Shown one piece after another: positions 12,707-62,800 of a DNA stretch of 64,000 bases (positions are counted from its first letter, which is position 1; each line of letters starts with the position of its first letter). This DNA is from Catajapyx aquilonaris. Taxonomy: Eukaryota. A program made the translations under genes and the position numbers. The DNA is taken from assembly GCA_000934665.2 (NCBI GenBank), contig KZ538059.1, positions 62,001 to 126,000 on the forward strand, written 5' to 3'. The notes under the pieces were generated by a model. It was not told the DNA's origin, searched no databases, and saw only the letters and a program-made list of their open reading frames with translations.

Positions 12707-13069
12707 CAGAGTGAATTAGAACTCCCAAGTCATTCTCCCGCTAAGGTAGGCTACTGGATGACCTCATACAACTTTAAATTTGTGGGTGAAAAATGTCGAA
12801 ACCCCGAACGTTAACGACCAAGAGAAGTGCAATTCGCGTGGTCGAGTTTGTCTATGGACAAGCAAACTGTGCGTTATGATCCAGAATAAGGTGACCTTAT
12901 TATGGATCATAACGCACAGTTTAGCCCCCTCATTGGCCGTGCCATGCGCTTTCTTGATCGTCATTTTACTTCGTTAACTCCTGGGTTTTCGACATTTTTC
13001 ACCCCTATATTTTTTAGACTTTTGGGCCAACGAGTGGTGGGAGACTGACCTGAGTTCTGACTCACCATG
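12707..13069. mobile_element. Concentric fold-back element (MITE-like, three nested inverted-repeat layers)
   Basis: Outer degenerate IR: cagagtgaattagaactc..gtcattctccc / gggagactgac..gagttctgactcaccatg. Middle IR: gggtgaaaaatgtcgaaac...gttaacga (12784-12817) / tcgttaac...gttttcgacatttttcaccc (12971-13004). Central 59-bp palindrome at 12864-12922 with one mismatch. Confidence 0.8.
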
Positions 13070-51401: not shown

Positions 51402-51645
51402 CCATCCAAGCTCATAAGGCAGTGCTGATTTGCCATATCTCAACCCATGCGCAATAGCTTAGGACGATAAGGCTCTCGCGAAGACATGGAGTTGTCATGC
51501 ACATGATTTCCGAGGTATCTTGTGCCAAATCAAGGCATGACAACTCTGAGCCTTGACGAGGGGCTTATCGTCCAAGTTATCGTGTTTAGGGTTGAGGTTG
51601 TGGATGGCATTAAGATAAGGCAGTGGGCCTTTTAAGCTTGATTGG
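51402..51645. mobile_element. Degenerate fold-back element (MITE-like long hairpin)
   Basis: Arms at about 51440-51509 and 51527-51595 are imperfect reverse complements (tcaaccc..ggacgataag..gagttgtcatgc..tgattt / aaatca..gcatgacaactc..cttatcgtcc..gggttga). Outer IR ccatccaagc..aaggc / gcctt..agcttgattgg. Confidence 0.7.
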
Positions 51646-52501: not shown

Positions 52502-55500
52502 ACACCACCTAATGGAAATATTTTGCATGTCAGCCACATTTTGATTTTCATAGCTTGATGTGAATAATCAATTACAATATTTCCAGCTGTATTTGAAATG
52601 GACTTGGGTGTGTGTGAATATGTTTTCCCAGCCATTGGGTGTTGTCACAGGACTAAAATAATATGAGTCATAGAACAAAGCTAATTATAAGCCGTCAATT
52701 TTTCTGCATTATTAGTTCCTGCAAACGACAGCGAAGGTTTTAATGGGTATAAATCAATAATCAATGCACTAGGCTATTAAAAATAACGAGATCTTGAGTC
52801 ACCTATCCTAATACCTCATTACGAAGCATAATATGGGAACATTTTTCGAACTTGTGTTCTTTACAAAGGGAGCTGTGGCAAGATCTTCTTTCCTTTTCAG
52901 CAGTAGAACTAAAGAAAAATAGTCGAGTGAAAAGCTGGCAGTATAGAAGTTGGGGAGGTTTGAATTGAGGTGAAGCAGAGAAGAACGAGGAACTGACAAT
53001 TAAAAGCGGAAAGCCCTTTACATTGACTCCGATCCGAAGAAGCCAATTTGTGGAGGGTGGGCCGACCAAGAATTTGTTGCGTCATCAATTCTGGGACACC
53101 CCCCTCCCTTGCAAAGCACCGCATCCCTGGAATTGAACACTTGGATTCCCCCAATCCCAACACGGATCCTTTTCCTTACCCCCTCTCTCCCTTACCGATC
53201 TCCCTCCGCAAGATCCTTGTTAGGAATGAGATCCTTCGGAAAGAGGAGGTTTCATCCAAGTGGAAATTGCTGCCGCCTTGAACTATTACACTGCTCCTTA
53301 GCTTTCGTCCCAATTAACACCTGTCATGTCAATCGCCTGATTGCACCACAGACCAAGCCAAGTCTTGCCAGGGTTTTTTTTTTGTTGTGCGTCACGATTG
53401 CATGAATTTTTCACTTTGACAACTGTGCTGCCTACTTTGCCCTTTTGACACCCAACATTTATAGCCACATCGTATACCAGCACCCATAGGACATACAGAT
53501 AAGTTTGCTATCAGAGGTAAATTTTGCAAAGATATTGACTGAGTTCAAGATTTTTATTAATGAAATTAATGAATGCCAAATAGTAGTGAGATATCCATGT
53601 TCATATATGTTTTTAGCATTTATAACAGATTTCTACATATTGACTTCAACTTCAGAGAGTAGGCTACCAACAATTTAGCGTAAAAAATTTAAACTTTGCT
53701 GAAAACATGGTCTAACAAATAATTATCGAATCGTCAGAAAGACGTAGATACATTTTATCTGAGTATATGTTTTAGACCTTTCTAGCCCGGGCATTAATAT
53801 TGCCTGTAAAAATGCTCTGGCGTAAAATCCTAAGCAATTAGAGTTTGCACTTGAGATGTCGAGTGATGCTTACGCAAATTAATGATATCAAGTACGGTAC
53901 TGGAATCTTTATTATGCGTGTTTTAGTATAATATTACGTTGAAAGCTTTTACGTTTAGTGCATAGCTAGCTCGAGTTCATCATCGAATACACTCATTTTA
54001 AAAGCAGCTTTTAATAATCAGCATAGTGCATCAAGCTGGCAATTAAGGCGGTCCTTTTACGGAAATGAAGTGCCGGTCTGCTATAATGCAACTTTCGAGG
54101 AAGTTCTCCAAAAATCCAATATTTTTAAAAAATGGACGCGGACGGCCCAAAATTTTTGCCCATTGTCAGTACAAGTCATGCATATCTGCTCCCGTCTGTT
54201 TATAATGCGTTGTGATGTGTAATATCGTAGCTTACACTCTGATTCACAGGCTCCTAAATTAATTCTCACGGGCCTAATCGAATTTTGGGAGCTGCCAGGA
54301 AAGGAAAGCCTTGCAGGCTCACGTCAGGCAGAACAGCACCAAATCCGCACAAAGTCCCAATAAGTGATGCTTCTCTGTCAGAAAATTTAACAGTATGCCT
54401 TCGTCTCACGTTACTCAAGGAACTTTTATGAAAAATATTTTTCAGCGTAGACTTGCTTCTGAAAATAATAATTGCATCACAATTTTATATTAGTTACTAG
54501 CATTACAATACGTAAATTCTGAGCAACCTCTATCTATTCGAACGGAATGATACATTTTTTCCTGTTTTTCCAACTATTCTGTGTCCTTCAATTTGTTGTC
54601 TTTTTATTGACACAATAAGGATTCATATTTATTGGGATGGCAGTAGGCATAAAGTAGCCTAGGGCTGTAATCAGAAAAAGTAAGCTCCTGCCATGTTTGT
54701 TGCTTATTATTTAATTTAACCATTAATTTAGCCATGGAAGTCAACTCAAAGCGTAAAAATATTTGGTGTTTATGTGCAAGATTTCATCGGGAATCTCATA
54801 TGTGCCAATGGCAATAGTGATTATTAAGTTATCAAGTTTTATTAGTTGAGCCACATGAACACATCACCAGAGCAACTTCCATATGTGCCGCTAATATACC
54901 TTTATTATGTTTACAGGACAATGGTTACATTTGCACAAATACCGTATCACTTCTATAGTACGAGCCAGGCGAAGTTAAACTTTGCCCAATTTTACTTTGA
55001 GTTGCACCGTACACATAGGATATGTGGATATTGTACTGTTCTGTACAGTATACCTTGTAACATCTACCGTGGTCACAAAGCTGATAATCATGTACGTTTG
55101 CACTATTCAAGCCTACATTATTTTTCAGACCTTGGACTATTCTATTGTTTGGAGAAAAAACTTAGTTTTATTTTCGCTTCTGGTATTAAAAATAACCTCC
55201 ACTAAAAATTAGCGAGGAAAATGACAAAAACTATCCTCGCAAAGATCGTTTGCTTGTGACTTGAAGTGGCGAGGTTGAGGTGACTTCCAAAGTGAAAGTG
55301 TTCTGCTGCTATCATGCCAGTCGACCTTGCTGGGTATGAGCACCGATGTGTTCATTCAGTGATGTGCCGATAAGCTTGGCAGGTTGTAGTGTGCGTTCGG
55401 ACGTCGAAGGAGGCAGAGATCGCTTGGTGATTCCCAGGAGCCTAAAGGACAAAATTGGCAGGGGCTGTGACAGCACGGTAGAACAAATATTGCAACATGG

Positions 55501-55929
55501 AGCTTGTTTCAGTAGTAAGTGACAATCCGAGTGTTTTTGTTCTGAAAGACTCCGTAAACATGTAATGCACAGGATGGTCTCAGGGATGCTGGGGACCTGT
55601 TGGTTGATCCTACTGTATATAGATCAGTCTGCGTGACCTTCAGTACTATGGTTCCTTATACCTAATCAAATGCCATTGTGGGAGCCTTTAAAAATCTGGC
55701 ACTCATTCCGAACTCAATGTACATTTTATCAGGGGGAAATGGTGAACGTGTCACTTTTTAACACCCAGTATAATACACATTATAGAAATTGGCAGTAAGA
55801 CGTCTCCACAAAACCGGTATAAACTAATATTATTACATGCCCCCCAATGGCAATCATGCCCAACGGGGTAAAGAAAGAAAGAAAGAAATGAAAATATTAT
55901 TATATATCAAAGAGACATCGCGATCTGCG

Positions 55930-55935
55930 TTTATT
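55930..55935 (-). promoter_or_regulatory. Candidate polyadenylation signal of the zinc-finger gene
   Basis: AATAAA on the minus strand, about 100 nt past the stop codon once the MITE is removed, followed by a U-rich tract (tttcatttctttctttcttt on minus). Confidence 0.5.
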
Positions 55936-55981
55936 ATACAAAGTACCGTACCACGGATGCCTCTAAACACACACAGACAAA

Positions 55982-56355
55982 CAGGGGCGGATCCAAGGGG
56001 GGGGGGGGNGGGGGGGGGGTCACGGGGGTCATGACCCCCCCCCCAAACCATGGAAAGTGAAATATTTTCTAAATTTTTATCTGCAAATTAAGAGGATTTT
56101 TGGGAAAAAGTGCTACCAATTTCATCAAATACTGTACACACCCATTCAAATCTCCTACATTCACCTAAGCTCGTGTGACCTTGAACCCCCCAAAAAATTT
56201 CGCCTGCGGCGCTCTTGCTCCCCGCCCTTTTCGACTTATGCCCCCGCCCCGCCTCGCAAACGCCACCAAGTCTGGTATGGTACAGAACGGTCCGAAAGGA
56301 CAAAGGACCATGACGGCATGACCCCCCCCAAATCGAAAGTCTGGATCCGCCCCTG
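55982..56355. mobile_element. hAT-superfamily MITE (non-autonomous, 374 bp)
   Basis: Perfect 14-bp TIRs CAGGGGCGGATCCA / TGGATCCGCCCCTG and a perfect 8-bp TSD CAGACAAA (55974-55981 and 56356-56363). Subterminal catgacccccccc motifs occur near both ends. An 8-bp TSD with CA..TG termini is typical of hAT elements. Confidence 0.92.
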
Positions 56356-56414
56356 CAGACAAACACATTGATTCATGGTACTAAAATCACAATGTGCCAT
56401 CTTCACAGAGTCTT

Positions 56415-57524
56415 TTAGCGGCGCTTCTTGCAGTATCGGAGAAGGTGCTGCTTGTAGGACTGGGCTGAGGAGAATCCTCTCTTGCAGGGCTTGCAGATGA
56501 ACTGCTTGCGCTTCTTGCAGTATCGGAGCAGGTGCTGCTTGTAGGACTGAAATGAGGAGAATCCTCTCTTGCAGGGCTTGCAGTTGAACGGTTTACGCTT
56601 CAGGTGTGTGTTCTTATGGTCCCTGAAGGCAGAGGCCCTGTTGAACGCCTTGGGGCACCCACGGAACTTGCATTTGTACAGTCCCTGGTGATCCCGTTCG
56701 TGGCGGTTCCTGCTTCCGCTCTGGGTGAACTTGCGGGGCTTGCGCTTCTTGCAGTATCGGAGCAGGTGCTGCTTGTAGGACTGGGCTGAGGAGAATCTTC
56801 TCTTGCAGGGCTTGCAGTTGAACGGCTTGCGTTTCAGGTGGGTGTACCTGTGGCAAGACCTGTGGGCTCTGAAGGCATACCCCCTGTTGAACGCCTTGGT
56901 GCACCCACGGAACCTGCACTTGTAGCGGCTTTTTCCTTGGTGATCTTGCTTGTGGCGATTCCTACTTCCGCTTTGGGTGAACTTCTCGGGGCAGATATGG
57001 CACGTATAAGGTTTATCCTTAGTGTGAACCACCCGGTGCTGCAGCATGTGGCTCCTGTAGAGAAACGCCTTCCTGCATATGTCACACGTTTTTCCTGGAG
57101 GAGGAGGAGAACAAGGGTCTGGCTGATCCTCATCATTGTTCACAGGATCGACCTGCATGATCTCATCCTGTTCGGGTATGGGAGGGTCCACGTCATTCTG
57201 GTCGGGTAGGGGAGGGTCCACGTCCTCCTGGTCGGGTTGGGGAGGGTCCACGTCCTCCTGGTCGGGTAGGGGAGGGACCACGTCCTCCTGGTCTGGTACG
57301 GGAGGCTCCACGACCTCCTGGTCTGGTACGGGAGGCTCCACGTCATCCTGATTGACAGGGACTGGGCCTGGAAGATTATCGCCATGATGAACAACATTCT
57401 CGCCATCTTTCAGACCTTGCAGAATCTCGGAAGTCCCCAAGGCATACACTATGGAACAATACATACCTGCATACACTAAGTTGAATCCATCCTCTTGGTT
57501 TATCGAGATGACCAGAGAGAACAT
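56415..57524 (-). CDS. Zinc-finger protein with a Pro/acidic tandem repeat, four C2H2 fingers, three C2HC fingers and one Cys-less half finger
   Basis: Uninterrupted ORF from the first ATG at 57524 (the track starts at an upstream TTG, 57548) to the stop at 56415-56417, 369 aa. C2H2 fingers: CDIC..HRVVH, CHIC..HKQDH, CRFRGC..HRSCH, CKFRGC..HKNTH. CKPCKR(R/G)FSS(A/F)QSYKQHLLRYC occurs three times. Linkers TKDKPYT and LKRKPFN resemble TGEKPY. A minus-strand acceptor (cttttacctcAG) lies near 57577, and a possible in-frame 51-nt intron lies near 57416-57466, so the N-terminus is uncertain. Confidence 0.85.
   Translation of the reverse strand: MFSLVISINQEDGFNLVYAGMYCSIVYALGTSEILQGLKDGENVVHHGDNLPGPVPVNQDDVEPPVPDQEVVEPPVPDQEDVVPPLPDQEDVDPPQPDQEDVDPPLPDQNDVDPPIPEQDEIMQVDPVNNDEDQPDPCSPPPPGKTCDICRKAFLYRSHMLQHRVVHTKDKPYTCHICPEKFTQSGSRNRHKQDHQGKSRYKCRFRGCTKAFNRGYAFRAHRSCHRYTHLKRKPFNCKPCKRRFSSAQSYKQHLLRYCKKRKPRKFTQSGSRNRHERDHQGLYKCKFRGCPKAFNRASAFRDHKNTHLKRKPFNCKPCKRGFSSFQSYKQHLLRYCKKRKQFICKPCKRGFSSAQSYKQHLLRYCKKRR
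56421..56985 (-). repeat. Recent intragenic duplications within the zinc-finger array
   Basis: A ~75-bp unit (gcgcttcttgcagtatcggagcaggtgctgcttgtaggactg...cttgcagggcttgcag) occurs at about 56421, 56508 and 56743. The larger block at about 56505-56735 duplicates about 56740-56985. Confidence 0.9.
57151..57360 (-). repeat. Coding 30-bp minisatellite of about 6-7 units encoding PP(V/L)PDQEDV(E/D)
   Basis: The + strand unit ggagggtccacgtcctcctggtcgggtagg and variants occur at 57181, 57211, 57241, 57271, 57301 and 57331, with a degenerate unit at 57151. Confidence 0.95.
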
Positions 57525-57942
57525 GATTGTTATTCTTATTCCAAACAATCAATTCTGGTGATCAACAGTCTCGGCCTGAGGTAAAAGATGTGTGGATTTA
57601 ATGGACATATTTCCTCAACTGTCCGTGCCTCACAACGATTTCCACTGGCGCATGGCGGTGGGCACGCCTCATTGTTCAATATTTATTTAAGCTTAGTGTA
57701 TAAAATATAAGTACGTGCGCAATAAAGTTGGACAAGAATTATGTCCAATATACTCTACATTCATGCTTTCCAATGCAAATTTATACGTGTGGATCTCCAG
57801 TAGTAGTTTCATTAATTAATGATAATGATTATTGTGCCATAAAAATTTGAAAGCTGTCCTTTGGGATGCCGCTCGAGATAAGGGGGAGTTGTGGATTCGT
57901 ATGATACTCGTAACGATATGTTCGTCCATAAGTGAAGTGTGA

Positions 57943-58050
57943 GTCAGACATAATTTGTTTCATCATGACGACGCGTCGCCATGATGAAACAAATCATGTC
58001 TGACGCGCAAATTATGTCTGAGGCGGGAGGCGTCGCGACGCCTCCCGCCT
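57943..58050. repeat. Palindrome pair 1: 62-bp loop-less palindrome (2 mismatches) plus 30-bp perfect palindrome
   Basis: gtcagacataatttgtttcatcatgacgacg|cgtcgccatgatgaaacaaatcatgtctgac (57943-58004) and aggcgggaggcgtcg|cgacgcctcccgcct (58021-58050). The spacer caaattatgtctga is a further exact complement of 57944-57957. Confidence 0.97.
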
Positions 58051-58657
58051 ATTCAAACATTTAACAAGAAAGACAAAATAGCAGTCATTGTTTTGTTCAC
58101 AGAAGGAACCAAAGTCATCTTAATATACAGTATTAGCGAATGCAGGTAAAATATAATATGTATGCCGTTAACCTCTCAGTCACTTGCCTACTATTGGTGT
58201 CATGCAAATGTAATTGATCCATTCTATTGGCCTGGAAGAGGCGCGTCTATCAGACTACTTTCATCCTGAAATATTTTACACAATAGAAAGGTGACTACAT
58301 GATTTATGGCAGATCCGTATAGTGCCTGCATTCTTCGATACATTTCGATTGGCTTTGTCTTTTCTATGCCCAAAACCTAAGACATCTCTCTTCTACTTGG
58401 TGCACATCTAAAGGCGCGCCACCGTCTTTGTCCACCTACTGTGTGAGTGACACTCCAGATATCCCAAAATTGCCTGAAGTTATGAGTCCGATATGAATGC
58501 TCAAACCTCTCAAACCTCTCAAACAGTATCATTACAAACTACCTGTAAATAAATAACTTATATAATTATTATATCACTCTTATCTCTTTCATTTGATCCA
58601 TCCTGTATTATAGGCTACACTGGATTAACAACATACTTTAAGGTCAAGGGAATCTAC

Positions 58658-58955
58658 CCTGAAACTTGCATGCAAAGGGGGAGGGTTCACCTGCTAGAAA
58701 GAGAAAAGGCTGGCACTCACTAAGCGCAAAAGGTGAATTGAGACACAGCCAAGCTGACTTTCCCTAGTGAGTGGGATTCTGGGTGATCGTGGCCTACCTG
58801 AAAGAGGGTTGGTTTTTGATCCTTTCACTGGTAAACCGGAGGACCTTATGGAGCTTGTAGACACGCTCCCTTCGAGCTCGAACAGCGGCCCAAGACTGTT
58901 TACAACTTGCATTGCTTAGTTACTTAAATCGATCGTGATAATGATGCATTTTAAT
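58658..58955. repeat. ~290-bp direct repeat, copy 1
   Basis: Aligns with 59537-59828. The 142-bp core (58767-58908) has only 3 substitutions and the flanks are more diverged. Confidence 0.95.
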
Positions 58956-59418
58956 ATTGTTCAGATGTCTACCACTCATTCCTAGCTTGAAAGGATCATG
59001 CTGGGATCATGGTTACAGTCACCATAGCATTGGGAGGATGAGAGTATGGATGTTACATGTTGTGAGCCATCATCTCTGTGAAAGTACAGTACATAGCCAA
59101 TAGGGAGCGGATATAGGTGGACGTCTGGCTCATTGTGGCTCCTCTGACTGCCACAGTTAGGAAGTCGAGGGAGTCGTGGGGTGGGTGTTGGACACAGGAG
59201 GAGCTTAACGCGCAAAGACCTCTAAGACATTCGTTGGAGGATCCGACGCCAAGGTAGCGAGGGTGCATCCTACCGCTATTTCCTCGCCATGATTCCCACT
59301 GGTGGTGGACAGGCTCCACATTGTTCAAAATTTATTGATAGAAAATTTAACCACAGCGGGCAATCAAGTTAGACGAGAATATGGCATAATTAGATGCATT
59401 CTTCCCCATGTAAATCTA

Positions 59419-59489
59419 CATGTGGATCCTCAGCACCCATGGGTGCTGAGGATCCACATGCAGATAACTGTTACTGCAGTAACAGTTAT
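59419..59489. repeat. Palindrome pair 2: 42-bp and 26-bp perfect loop-less palindromes
   Basis: catgtggatcctcagcaccca|tgggtgctgaggatccacatg (59419-59460) and ataactgttactg|cagtaacagttat (59464-59489). Confidence 0.97.
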
Positions 59490-59536
59490 TATACGTACAT
59501 TGGGGGTGACAAGCCAAAGGCCTACTAAAAACATAA

Positions 59537-59828
59537 CCTGAAACATGAATGCAAAGGGTTCTCCTGCTGGCAAGAGAGAAGGCTGGCACCCACTTAAACG
59601 CAAAATGTGACTTGAGACACGGCCACTGACTTTCCCTAGGTGAGTGGGATTCTGGGTGATCGTGGCCTACCTGAAAGAGGGTTGGTTTTTGATCCTTTCA
59701 CTGGTAAACCAGAGGACCTTATGGAGCTTGTAGACACACTCCCTTCTAGCTCGAACAGCGGCCCAAGACTGTTTACAACTTCCATTGCCTAGTTACTCAG
59801 GTGGATCGTAACAATGGTACATTTTAAT
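59537..59828. repeat. ~290-bp direct repeat, copy 2
   Basis: Aligns with 58658-58955 from cctgaaac..atgcaaaggg through cattttaat. Confidence 0.95.
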
Positions 59829-62800
59829 TGGCTCCACTGTACAAGGAGTTTTGGTGTTTCAGGAGTTCGCCGGAGTTTCTCGATGTTTGGTGGGAGTTCG
59901 TGAGTTGATCGCAAGCAACTGTAACACGGCAGTGGAAGCAAAGAGTAAGCAATGCCAAAAATGGCACAGGAGTGCACAAGTTCTCTCATTATATATTTAT
60001 TTACATTATGTACAATCCAGAATAGGAGAATGAGCTCATACCAAAAAATAAGGTTACAACTTCATCAAAAATAATACGATGATTTGACAGCCACTAAAAT
60101 ATTAATAATGAACAGAATAGTGGCAGATGATCAGGCCATGCTGTTGTAAAAGAGCTGAGTCAAGGTGAACTTGCGTGTAGGTCAGTACCAGGTGGTAACG
60201 GTAGTTATCAGCAAGGTCAAGGCACCAAGACTACAGTCCAACATTAACTCAAATCACATCAATTTACTTCCATCTGCAATCACTGGTAGAATAAAAATTA
60301 TTGCGGGCCACTAAAATCCATCCTGCTGGAAGGCATCATTTGCATAAGTGACACCACAGCGTGATTATAGAAAACTTCTCTGACGAATTACCCACTAATA
60401 CGTAATCTAGAGTTTAACCACGCCACCAAGGACCGTCGATGAAAGGCTGAATTATGTGCGGCGTTTCATCCATGCTGACTTCCAGTAAATTGCAGATCAG
60501 CTTGGCTGTTACATTTTGCCTGCTATAGTTTCTCCACAATTAAGCCTATTGCTGATTAGCCAACAGGCAAAAATTGTTCAACAGGGAGGAAAATATGTTT
60601 CATCTGTACGTCTACTTTCACGAATGTGGGAAATGTGTAGCGCAAGTTTTACGTATACACTCGGTACACTGAAGGTTGGTTCTGCTGGTAGATTCTGCGG
60701 ATACCTCTAGATTTTAAAGAGCGGGTCAAATGTGTTGCGTGGGCATGTCTACAATCTAATTTTTTATACTTGTAGTTCCAGATCCCGGATCTGTTATACT
60801 GTATCTCTATTTTTATCTGTATTATTTTTATTGAAGCTTTTGTGAAAACGAGCGTTCTAGTTAAACATGAAGGCCCAAAGGTCAGTTAATGTTTTGATGT
60901 AGTTATTTTCGGTTACGTACGTGTAATAAGTTTTGTGACAGATGATAACAATTGTTTTATTTGAAAATATTTTATTTTTGTGGCATTATTAATGAAGCAG
61001 ATTGACTTTTTGAAATGAAATATTGTAGAAAAAGGAAAATTGGAGTCATCTGAATAATAACAAAAAATTAAAATGCCTCAATGAGAAAGAGTAGTCTATT
61101 GAATTGTGGATATTACACGTGGTATTATTTGACGTCGGCAAATTGCTACATCAGCTTGAAATAGGGCCAGTTGGACCTCACCAAACAGCGCCTGTACACC
61201 ATGTCCTACTTGGAGAGGGTTAGTAAATACGCAATCCGGATTGTCCTTTCTATCACCCACCAGCAAATTCCCTCTTGCCATGATTTCGTAATGTTCCCTG
61301 CGTTATTCAAAGACCTATTCAAAGTGGTGCCTTTTTTTCCCGAGTTTACCGGAATTTGGCCAGAGTTACAAGAGTTAGGTCGGAATTCGGCTGGAGTTAT
61401 GGCTACTCGGAGTTGATAGGACTTTGTGAGATAATTGTATATCTGTTGACTTTGATAAGATGTGTGGAATCCGTTAGTCGTGATGTTTATTTGTGTGAAT
61501 TACGTATATCAACTTCATCCGATCATGTAATAATAGTGTAAAAAATGTTGTTTACAGTAGGTTTCAGAATATATTGAGCTCCCATCGGTATCGGTTGGAA
61601 AGTCGCGAACAAGAGAAGTTGGACCCCCATAATCACTTGACGCTAGAGAGTCCGTAACATTTACACCAATACGGATGGGAGTTCACACTTATGCAGGATA
61701 TCGTCTAGGTCACAGAACGTGACAATAACTCAACAGACTGTCATGTCGACTATATATCCTAGCTTATTGACGACGAAGTGTACGGAATCAGTCTGAAAAC
61801 TGCTAATTCAAACGTCCAGTTCCCATGATAATGTCCGAAAGAGCAATCGACTTTTACTCGTCTTTCCGAATGTTTAGCAGTTTTATGTTGGGCGTAAAAA
61901 GCCTTTTCAAGTTTATGAAATGGTGAGAGCCAGCTCTACGTTATTTTCAAAGATACGCATATGTACTTTACGATGATATTCTGCTGAGAATAATGAATAT
62001 TAAGCTGCATGAGGGAGGTTATGAGCGGATGGGAGAAAGGAATGAAGTGGAGAGGGGAGATGAGATGGTATGAATTGATTGGTGAAGCTTCAGTCTACCT
62101 TTATAGATACTGTATTCCTTTGTGGTTTTACGTTCCGACGGGCTGTAATATAAATAAACTTATACTGTCCTTAAATTAAAATATGCTCCAAAAACGCACA
62201 TACAAATGTTTTAGCTTTAAAAATGAACCAGCCTGATTTCTCTCTTAATTTACCAGTTTTATGGTATGTATATGTGTGGAGGGAGGGGGAGTGGACGAGG
62301 ATAAACACCGTATTTTTCCGGTACGTAGTACATGAAAGACTCGTTAGGATTGCACAGAGTTGATACATTCCGTCCTACCAAAAAGGCACATCTGAACATT
62401 GCTATCAGGTCATGTTTTTATCGAGTAGTCTGGCCCAAACGACCTTGTCACAATGTGCCCAATATAGCCTTTTTTCGGTAAAGTGCAGAATAATAGTACA
62501 AATAACAATTCCTATTGATGCTAATGTTTAATGTTGAATGCCACGATTTCATGGAACCCTGGTTGAAAAAACAGTGTTTGGGAATCCCTGAGGAGGAGGA
62601 ATATGCAGCATAGAGGTAGAAATATCAGGTCTCTTGTGGTAGAAAATGGGATGATTGTCATTCCTTCGGAGCATTTGGAAGTCAATATTGCTCCCCGAAA
62701 CGTGGGAAAACGTACCGGAATATGCGCGACCATATTTTAAAAACTTGGATGATGCTCCGCTTATAGAGACGTCTGACGGGGTGAAGTGAAATACTCCAGA

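Follow-up and report, generated by a model that had tools for sequence, protein, structure and literature searches.

The window, by which we mean the whole 64,000-nt stretch of a 286-Mb source assembly, carries on its minus strand a C2H2 zinc-finger open reading frame (ORF) and, upstream of it, two copies of a module in which a repeat called R is followed by a block called M, each copy being associated with a short and a long loop-less palindrome (Table 1). The ORF lacks the N-terminus common to six other copies of its paralogue family, the frames of which range from about 280 to 1035 aa, and it includes a 30-bp tandem repeat encoding an acidic, proline-rich stretch. Directly downstream lies a very high-copy MITE, and the locus is therefore one that receives repeated insertions. 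Other parts of the window contain short coding pieces that resemble what we take to be an arthropod Beat-type immunoglobulin gene.

Table 1. Features of the zinc-finger locus, in positions of the window.
Feature	Positions	Strand	Remarks
Very high-copy MITE	55982..56355	.	8-base flanking duplication; directly downstream of the zinc-finger ORF
C2H2 zinc-finger ORF	56415..57548	-	stop-to-stop length 377 aa; one of a paralogue family whose finger regions are 77-89% identical
M, unit 1, extended homology block	57608..57795	-	counterpart of the unit-2 scar site lies at its start, empty
Old dispersed TIR element, ~800 bp	57815..58605	-	separates R from M in unit 1; clear TIR on the left, decayed and approximate end on the right
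Long palindrome, unit 1	57943..58004	.	arms of 31, 2 mismatches; 31-nt inverted copy plus native right flank
Putative scar, unit 1	57969..58040	-	62 new bases (57974-58035) between two CGTCG copies
Templated patch, unit 1	58008..58020	-	13 nt; repeats part of the right flank once more in inverted form
Short palindrome, unit 1	58021..58050	.	30 bp, perfect, loop-less; native left flank plus its own 15-nt inverted copy
R, unit 1	58655..58955	-	88% identical to unit-2 R
M, unit 2, extended homology block	59277..59428	-	from alignment
Long palindrome, unit 2	59414..59465	.	26-nt inverted copy plus native right flank
Putative scar, unit 2	59438..59478	-	37 new bases (59440-59476) between two TG copies
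Short palindrome, unit 2	59464..59489	.	26 bp, perfect, loop-less; native left flank plus its own 13-nt inverted copy
R, unit 2	59534..59828	-	duplicated 5' region of the C2H2 zinc-finger gene family

The original prediction had placed R, M and the palindromes at this locus, and alignment reproduced both their coordinates and their homology, the two R copies being identical at 88% over 303 columns. The M homology was also present in both units as predicted, but it proved longer than claimed, 59300-59428 of unit 2 aligning with 57653-57795 of unit 1 (69% over 146 columns), and it begins within the right arm of the long palindrome of unit 2. Elsewhere in the genome R occupies at least about 25 places (30 matches including itself and matches of the palindromes), frequently as tandem copies located upstream of closely related zinc-finger paralogues, in R-M surroundings that hold many nested inverted-repeat elements. 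Among the loci compared, several of them on short contigs, no common R-M boundary appeared within 2.5 kb of either R or the stop codon; since homology instead fades at scattered distances, R-M reads, as far as its sequence goes, as ordinary duplicated 5' DNA of the zinc-finger gene family. R has conserved GT/AG-like motifs and possibly holds putative 5'-UTR exons; a short ORF could also be read in it by eye.

Both palindrome pairs read A, rc(A), rc(B), B, where rc denotes the reverse complement and A and B are native flanks that are joined in other copies of the same DNA, and all four palindromes are even-centred. The unit-2 long palindrome has a perfect core of 42 bp (59419-59460), extends over 59414-59465 with arms of 26 and 1 mismatch, and shares 2 nt with the short one, as a microhomology joint. 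The unit-2 insert thus consists of rc(left 13) and then rc(right 26) with this 2-base overlap, plus a duplicated TG, the copies of which lie at 59477-59478 and 59438-59439. In unit 1 the 62 inserted bases comprise, in order, rc(left 15), 13 bases that copy the right flank once more, and rc(right 31); they are bounded by one CGTCG at the end of the left flank (58036-58040) and another at the start of the right flank (57969-57973), a Transib-type target. A Markov-shuffled genome sample of 399,673 bases gave zero loop-0 or loop-1 palindromes with a score ≥10, so the palindromes are far beyond chance, as had been argued. Two further doubts voiced in advance, that the palindromes are high-copy MITEs or that the reads contradict them, were not borne out. 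No other locus in the genome matched the arms and the read depth is single-copy; contigs assembled from sequencing runs X1-X3 contain both pairs, with no differing letter and at single-copy depth, these runs being one sample that is possibly the assembly's own source and hence not independent, and run X5 and the stretch above 59800 being outside the comparison. A contig break within the 42-bp palindrome is overlapped from both sides.

The original prediction had the two pairs in the same slot, and here the comparison with homologous DNA went against it. The unit-2 pair breaks up the R-M module of the zinc-finger gene family: seven of the eight other aligned R-M modules run through this site without the insert, and the eighth is without that stretch. 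Closing the site with a 2-base overlap gave the best score against 10 comparison sequences, 791 versus 504 for the sequence as is and 713-762 for other overlaps. In unit 1 the homologous site (~57795-57815) is empty, with no palindrome, and the unit-1 pair lies ~130-250 bases further upstream, in a segment absent from unit 2. There it sits within an old TIR element, the ends of which are presumably Tc1/mariner-like and which has >20 matches in the genome. Across 10 other copies of this element, the site is crossed without the insert in six, falls in a larger deletion in one, and is unaligned in three. Alignment alone does not fix the overlap at the unit-1 site (scores of 395, 397, 394 and 376 for overlaps of 5, 7, 4 and 2, respectively). 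Only overlaps of 0, 2 and 5 make exact duplications; of these 5 scores best, and 2 is still allowed by the alignment. The site also has 7 extra bases relative to the other copies of the element, which we infer to be probably an older local duplication. In the one sample that covers the region, no site still occupied by an element was seen in either unit, whether in alleles or in paralogues.

Because in both units both flanks are copied in inverted orientation, with the copies centred exactly on the flank ends around a duplicated target, we consider with good confidence that each double palindrome is the footprint left at the donor site by a cut-and-paste transposon that sealed the flanking DNA as hairpins. 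Repair of hairpins had been the last of three options in the original prediction, and the comparison both supports and sharpens it, to transposon excision through flank hairpins. In the proposed sequence of events an element would first insert and duplicate its target, in keeping with the exact duplication observed at both palindrome centres. Its excision would then leave a covalent hairpin on each flank, as the loop-less symmetry exactly at the flank ends suggests. Host nucleases are proposed to open these hairpins far from the tip, which would yield the inverted copies of 13-31 nt that are present here. The ends would finally be joined, perhaps by polymerase-theta-type joining, at the short microhomology observed in the window and, in unit 1, with the extra templated patch. 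The scars are probably neutral.

For unit 1 the class of the element can be narrowed. Transib elements are reported to insert at CGNCG (PMC4735498) and to have 5-bp duplications and a CACAATG-like end (bioRxiv 10.64898/2026.08.26.747230), and hAT, Transib, MULE and RAG are described as making flank hairpins (PMC5499845). Unit 1 shows a 5-bp duplication of the CGNCG type at the joint and inverted flank copies centred at the flank ends, and its scar probably derives from a Transib-type element. Elements that end in CACAGTG, that is Transib-type MITEs, are present in the genome. CGNCG adjoins CACWRTG 448 times genome-wide, against 167 times in the reversed control; three inward-facing pairs that were fetched are TIR elements with 5-bp CGNCG flanks, exact in two and at 4/5 in one, and none of these three MITEs has a long ORF, so that they are non-coding. 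Further MITE copies found by similarity had a readable end in four of six cases, each with a flank within one change of CGNCG. Among eight single CGNCG-CACWRTG matches that were fetched blind, most were not shown to be element ends. Searches for the Transib transposase (PF12940) and for the RAG1 family were blank, and the control of each was likewise silent.

The Transib assignment predicts scars with CGNCG centres of the right polarity, and we cast this prediction as two exact patterns, with reversed controls of the same architecture that carry GCNGC. Genome-wide the patterns matched 16 + 3 = 19 places and the controls 0 + 1 = 1. All 19 were inspected, and 10, the window included, are true double palindromes on 10 contigs and are mutually unrelated; the other nine, on contigs C2455 and C17611, belong to a short-armed tandem cluster, are not scars and were dropped. 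The one-sided p is 0.006 for 10 versus 1 and 0.011 for 9 versus 1 with the window left out, the control match being taken uninspected in both. The single 10-mer is not enriched (211 versus 189), and the excess of scars is therefore not due to composition; because exact patterns were used, the 10 scars are a lower bound. Their arms measure 10-54 nt with a median of 24.5 (the left arm of the C3184 scar being 9 plus 19 across a slip), and their joints comprise six with 0-3 bases of overlap, one ambiguous joint and three with templated extra pieces. A loose double pattern gave 90 versus 29 matches per strand, largely CG-rich tandem repeats, and one of 11 such places that were fetched (C7, L213) resembles a decayed scar, which was left uncounted. 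Perfect arms of ≥8 were present in three of the 49 single 10-mer places fetched out of 211, one of these being a full scar (C40).

Several other inverted repeats were recorded along the way. In the dropped cluster (L220, G000:C2455:1200-8200, and L226, C17611), short modules stand in tandem, jointed by CGACG/CGTCG runs; it might be a site repeatedly targeted by Transib-type elements. A double palindrome at L045:658-814 (G000:C2607) has 37-nt arms and one-base centres, and its flanks share AATT by the hAT rule, on that reading a 4-base duplication from some other element that forms hairpins. The window itself holds, at 12864-12922, one palindrome on its own, with 29-nt arms on either side of a single base, possibly a one-sided scar or the centre of a MITE, and an imperfect hairpin with 39-nt arms, 79% complementary, and a 34-nt spacer (51462-51573). 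The random sample contained single loop-less palindromes with 23-nt arms at L134:9559-9604 and L141:3768-3813, and a TIR element at L131:3428-3635 begins with CCC and has an apparent 6-base flanking duplication.

The unit-2 duplication is 2 bases long rather than the 5 bp of Transib, and falls within the 2-4 bp reported for target duplications of the CACTA/Mirage/Chapaev (CMC) group (bioRxiv 10.64898/2026.08.26.747230). The unit-2 element would thus be distinct from that of unit 1 and may perhaps belong to the CMC group, a suggestion that we make only weakly; it may also be kin to Transib, because 2-3 bp exceptions are reported in the Transib lineage by the same source. Transposase_21, the CACTA-type domain, has six matches in the genome. 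An open 1002-aa frame with such a match was seen at L146:343-3348 (G000:C9201). In the fetched DNA, 2-base flank matches occurred in seven of 150 inverted-repeat pairs, about what chance gives, and none made a convincing 2-bp-duplicating family.

The main rival, chiefly for unit 2, for which there is no known donor element, is transposon-independent error in repair or replication, in which either the template was switched twice in succession or both ends of a staggered break folded back and primed synthesis. Signatures of repair are indeed present, namely the templated patches in three of the 10 CGNCG scars and the short microhomologies; single template switches are reported to create inverted repeats (PMC5453318), and single long loop-less palindromes occur in the genome sample, two with 23-nt arms in 400 kb. 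As set out in the model of PMC5453318, however, one switch-and-return copies one contiguous reverse fragment, whereas the inserts here run rc(left) and then rc(right) and would need two events that met at a single site. At the centres, the empty sites contain no earlier palindrome from which fold-back could be primed, and template switching does not predict an excess of CGNCG over GCNGC. We regard this explanation as unlikely.

That the pairs are conserved or repeatedly selected as a cruciform or hairpin element, or mark the origin of a mobile or viral unit made up of R-M and the zinc-finger gene, was the reading that the original prediction put first, its options including a cruciform regulator and an origin of replication or packaging. 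It draws on two architecturally alike pairs lying within 1.5 kb upstream of one gene and on R standing in tandem at several loci, and the paralogous sites, being empty, have already largely disposed of it: the palindromes are absent from all other R-M copies examined, so that the expected series of R-M loci with variable palindrome pairs did not appear among the modules fetched, the two pairs sit at non-homologous places, and every arm copies local DNA. Between zinc-finger loci, moreover, homology gives out at varying distances and no boundary common to them was seen, and Rfam gave no match at E≤0.1 in 55500-61000. We give this reading very little credence; the two double palindromes are real but are no conserved signal, and there is no evidence of function. 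Tiny fold-back MITEs or their remnants, inserted independently, or an artefact of assembly, are more improbable still. Fold-back MITEs are numerous in the genome, some with loop-less centres and some also near R copies, but the arms here copy local flanks and matched no other locus, and the depth is single-copy, with short-read contigs that carry the palindromes unchanged. MITE identity was accordingly rejected, dispersed copies of the palindromic unit not being found.

Besides the points given above, namely that no occupied site was seen, that neither a Transib transposase nor a 2-bp-duplicating family was found and that alignment alone leaves the unit-1 overlap unfixed, two observations speak against excision through flank hairpins, which we nevertheless prefer. 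The arms exceed the 20-nt maximum given for Ds palindromes in yeast (PMC5873905) despite the presence of an Artemis homologue, which spans several exons (L230:189-2219, G000:C604) and, as the sole DRMBL match, is closest to Artemis (E of 2e-48 versus 2e-17 for SNM1A). Large junctional palindromes are described for vertebrate Artemis-deficient cells (PMC2193822); loss of Artemis as the cause of the long arms is ruled out here by this homologue. The other observation is that two scars lie within 1.5 kb, yet the 400-kb sample has no comparable doubles, its one case being a low-complexity tandem. Either an insertion-prone region, as suggested by the nested elements near R, or the selection of an unusual window is needed to account for this.

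The mechanism of excision through hairpins is itself already known. What the genome may add, and to this we assign an even chance, is a natural and countable archive of RAG-type processing of flanks in the germline of an invertebrate, in which Transib hairpins would be opened 10-54 nt from the tip despite an Artemis homologue and joined by microhomology with templated patches. If true, this would point to hairpins being opened by a route other than the one used at V(D)J coding ends, a route that makes long heritable palindromes, and the length of the duplication in each scar would name the class of transposon (5 bp for Transib, 2 bp for another hairpin-forming element). If right, it would also show which footprints Transib, of all transposons the one most closely related to RAG, leaves in the germline in vivo. 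Such scars would account for one source of long perfect palindromes in the genome and offer a simple rule for sorting them. The open-access literature searched yielded no account of Transib footprints arising in nature, nor of two-sided arms this long in the genome of an arthropod.

Among known systems, CACTA footprints are of the even-centred hairpin type. The CMC group is also alike in its 2-4 bp duplications (bioRxiv 10.64898/2026.08.26.747230) and, in this genome, in the Transposase_21 matches; it differs in that the fetched DNA yielded no family with a 2-bp target duplication. A hAT footprint was considered and set aside, the four palindromes all being even-centred and not centred on one base. 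The target duplication of hAT elements is 8 bp, whereas those in the window are 5 or 2 bases. Ac/Ds footprints resemble the scars in their palindromic P-nucleotide insertions on either side of a joint with microhomology (PMC5873905), but the Ds palindromes described there have as their centre the complement of a single bordering base and in yeast are at most 20 nt long, whereas those in the window are even-centred and longer. Short template-switch mutations of the four-point model likewise copy local DNA in reverse complement and thereby give rise to new inverted repeats (PMC5453318); in the model as presented there, however, one event gives one contiguous reverse fragment, with no target-site preference. 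The large junctional palindromes of vertebrates belong to Artemis-deficient cells (PMC2193822), whereas an Artemis homologue is present here. The coding-end hairpins of Transib and RAG, with their P nucleotides, share with the scars the loop-less palindromes centred exactly on each flank end, and Transib in addition the 5-bp CGNCG duplication of unit 1, with CACAGTG-ended elements in the same genome; the scars described here differ from both in being fixed in the germline, with arms of 10-54 nt on both sides.
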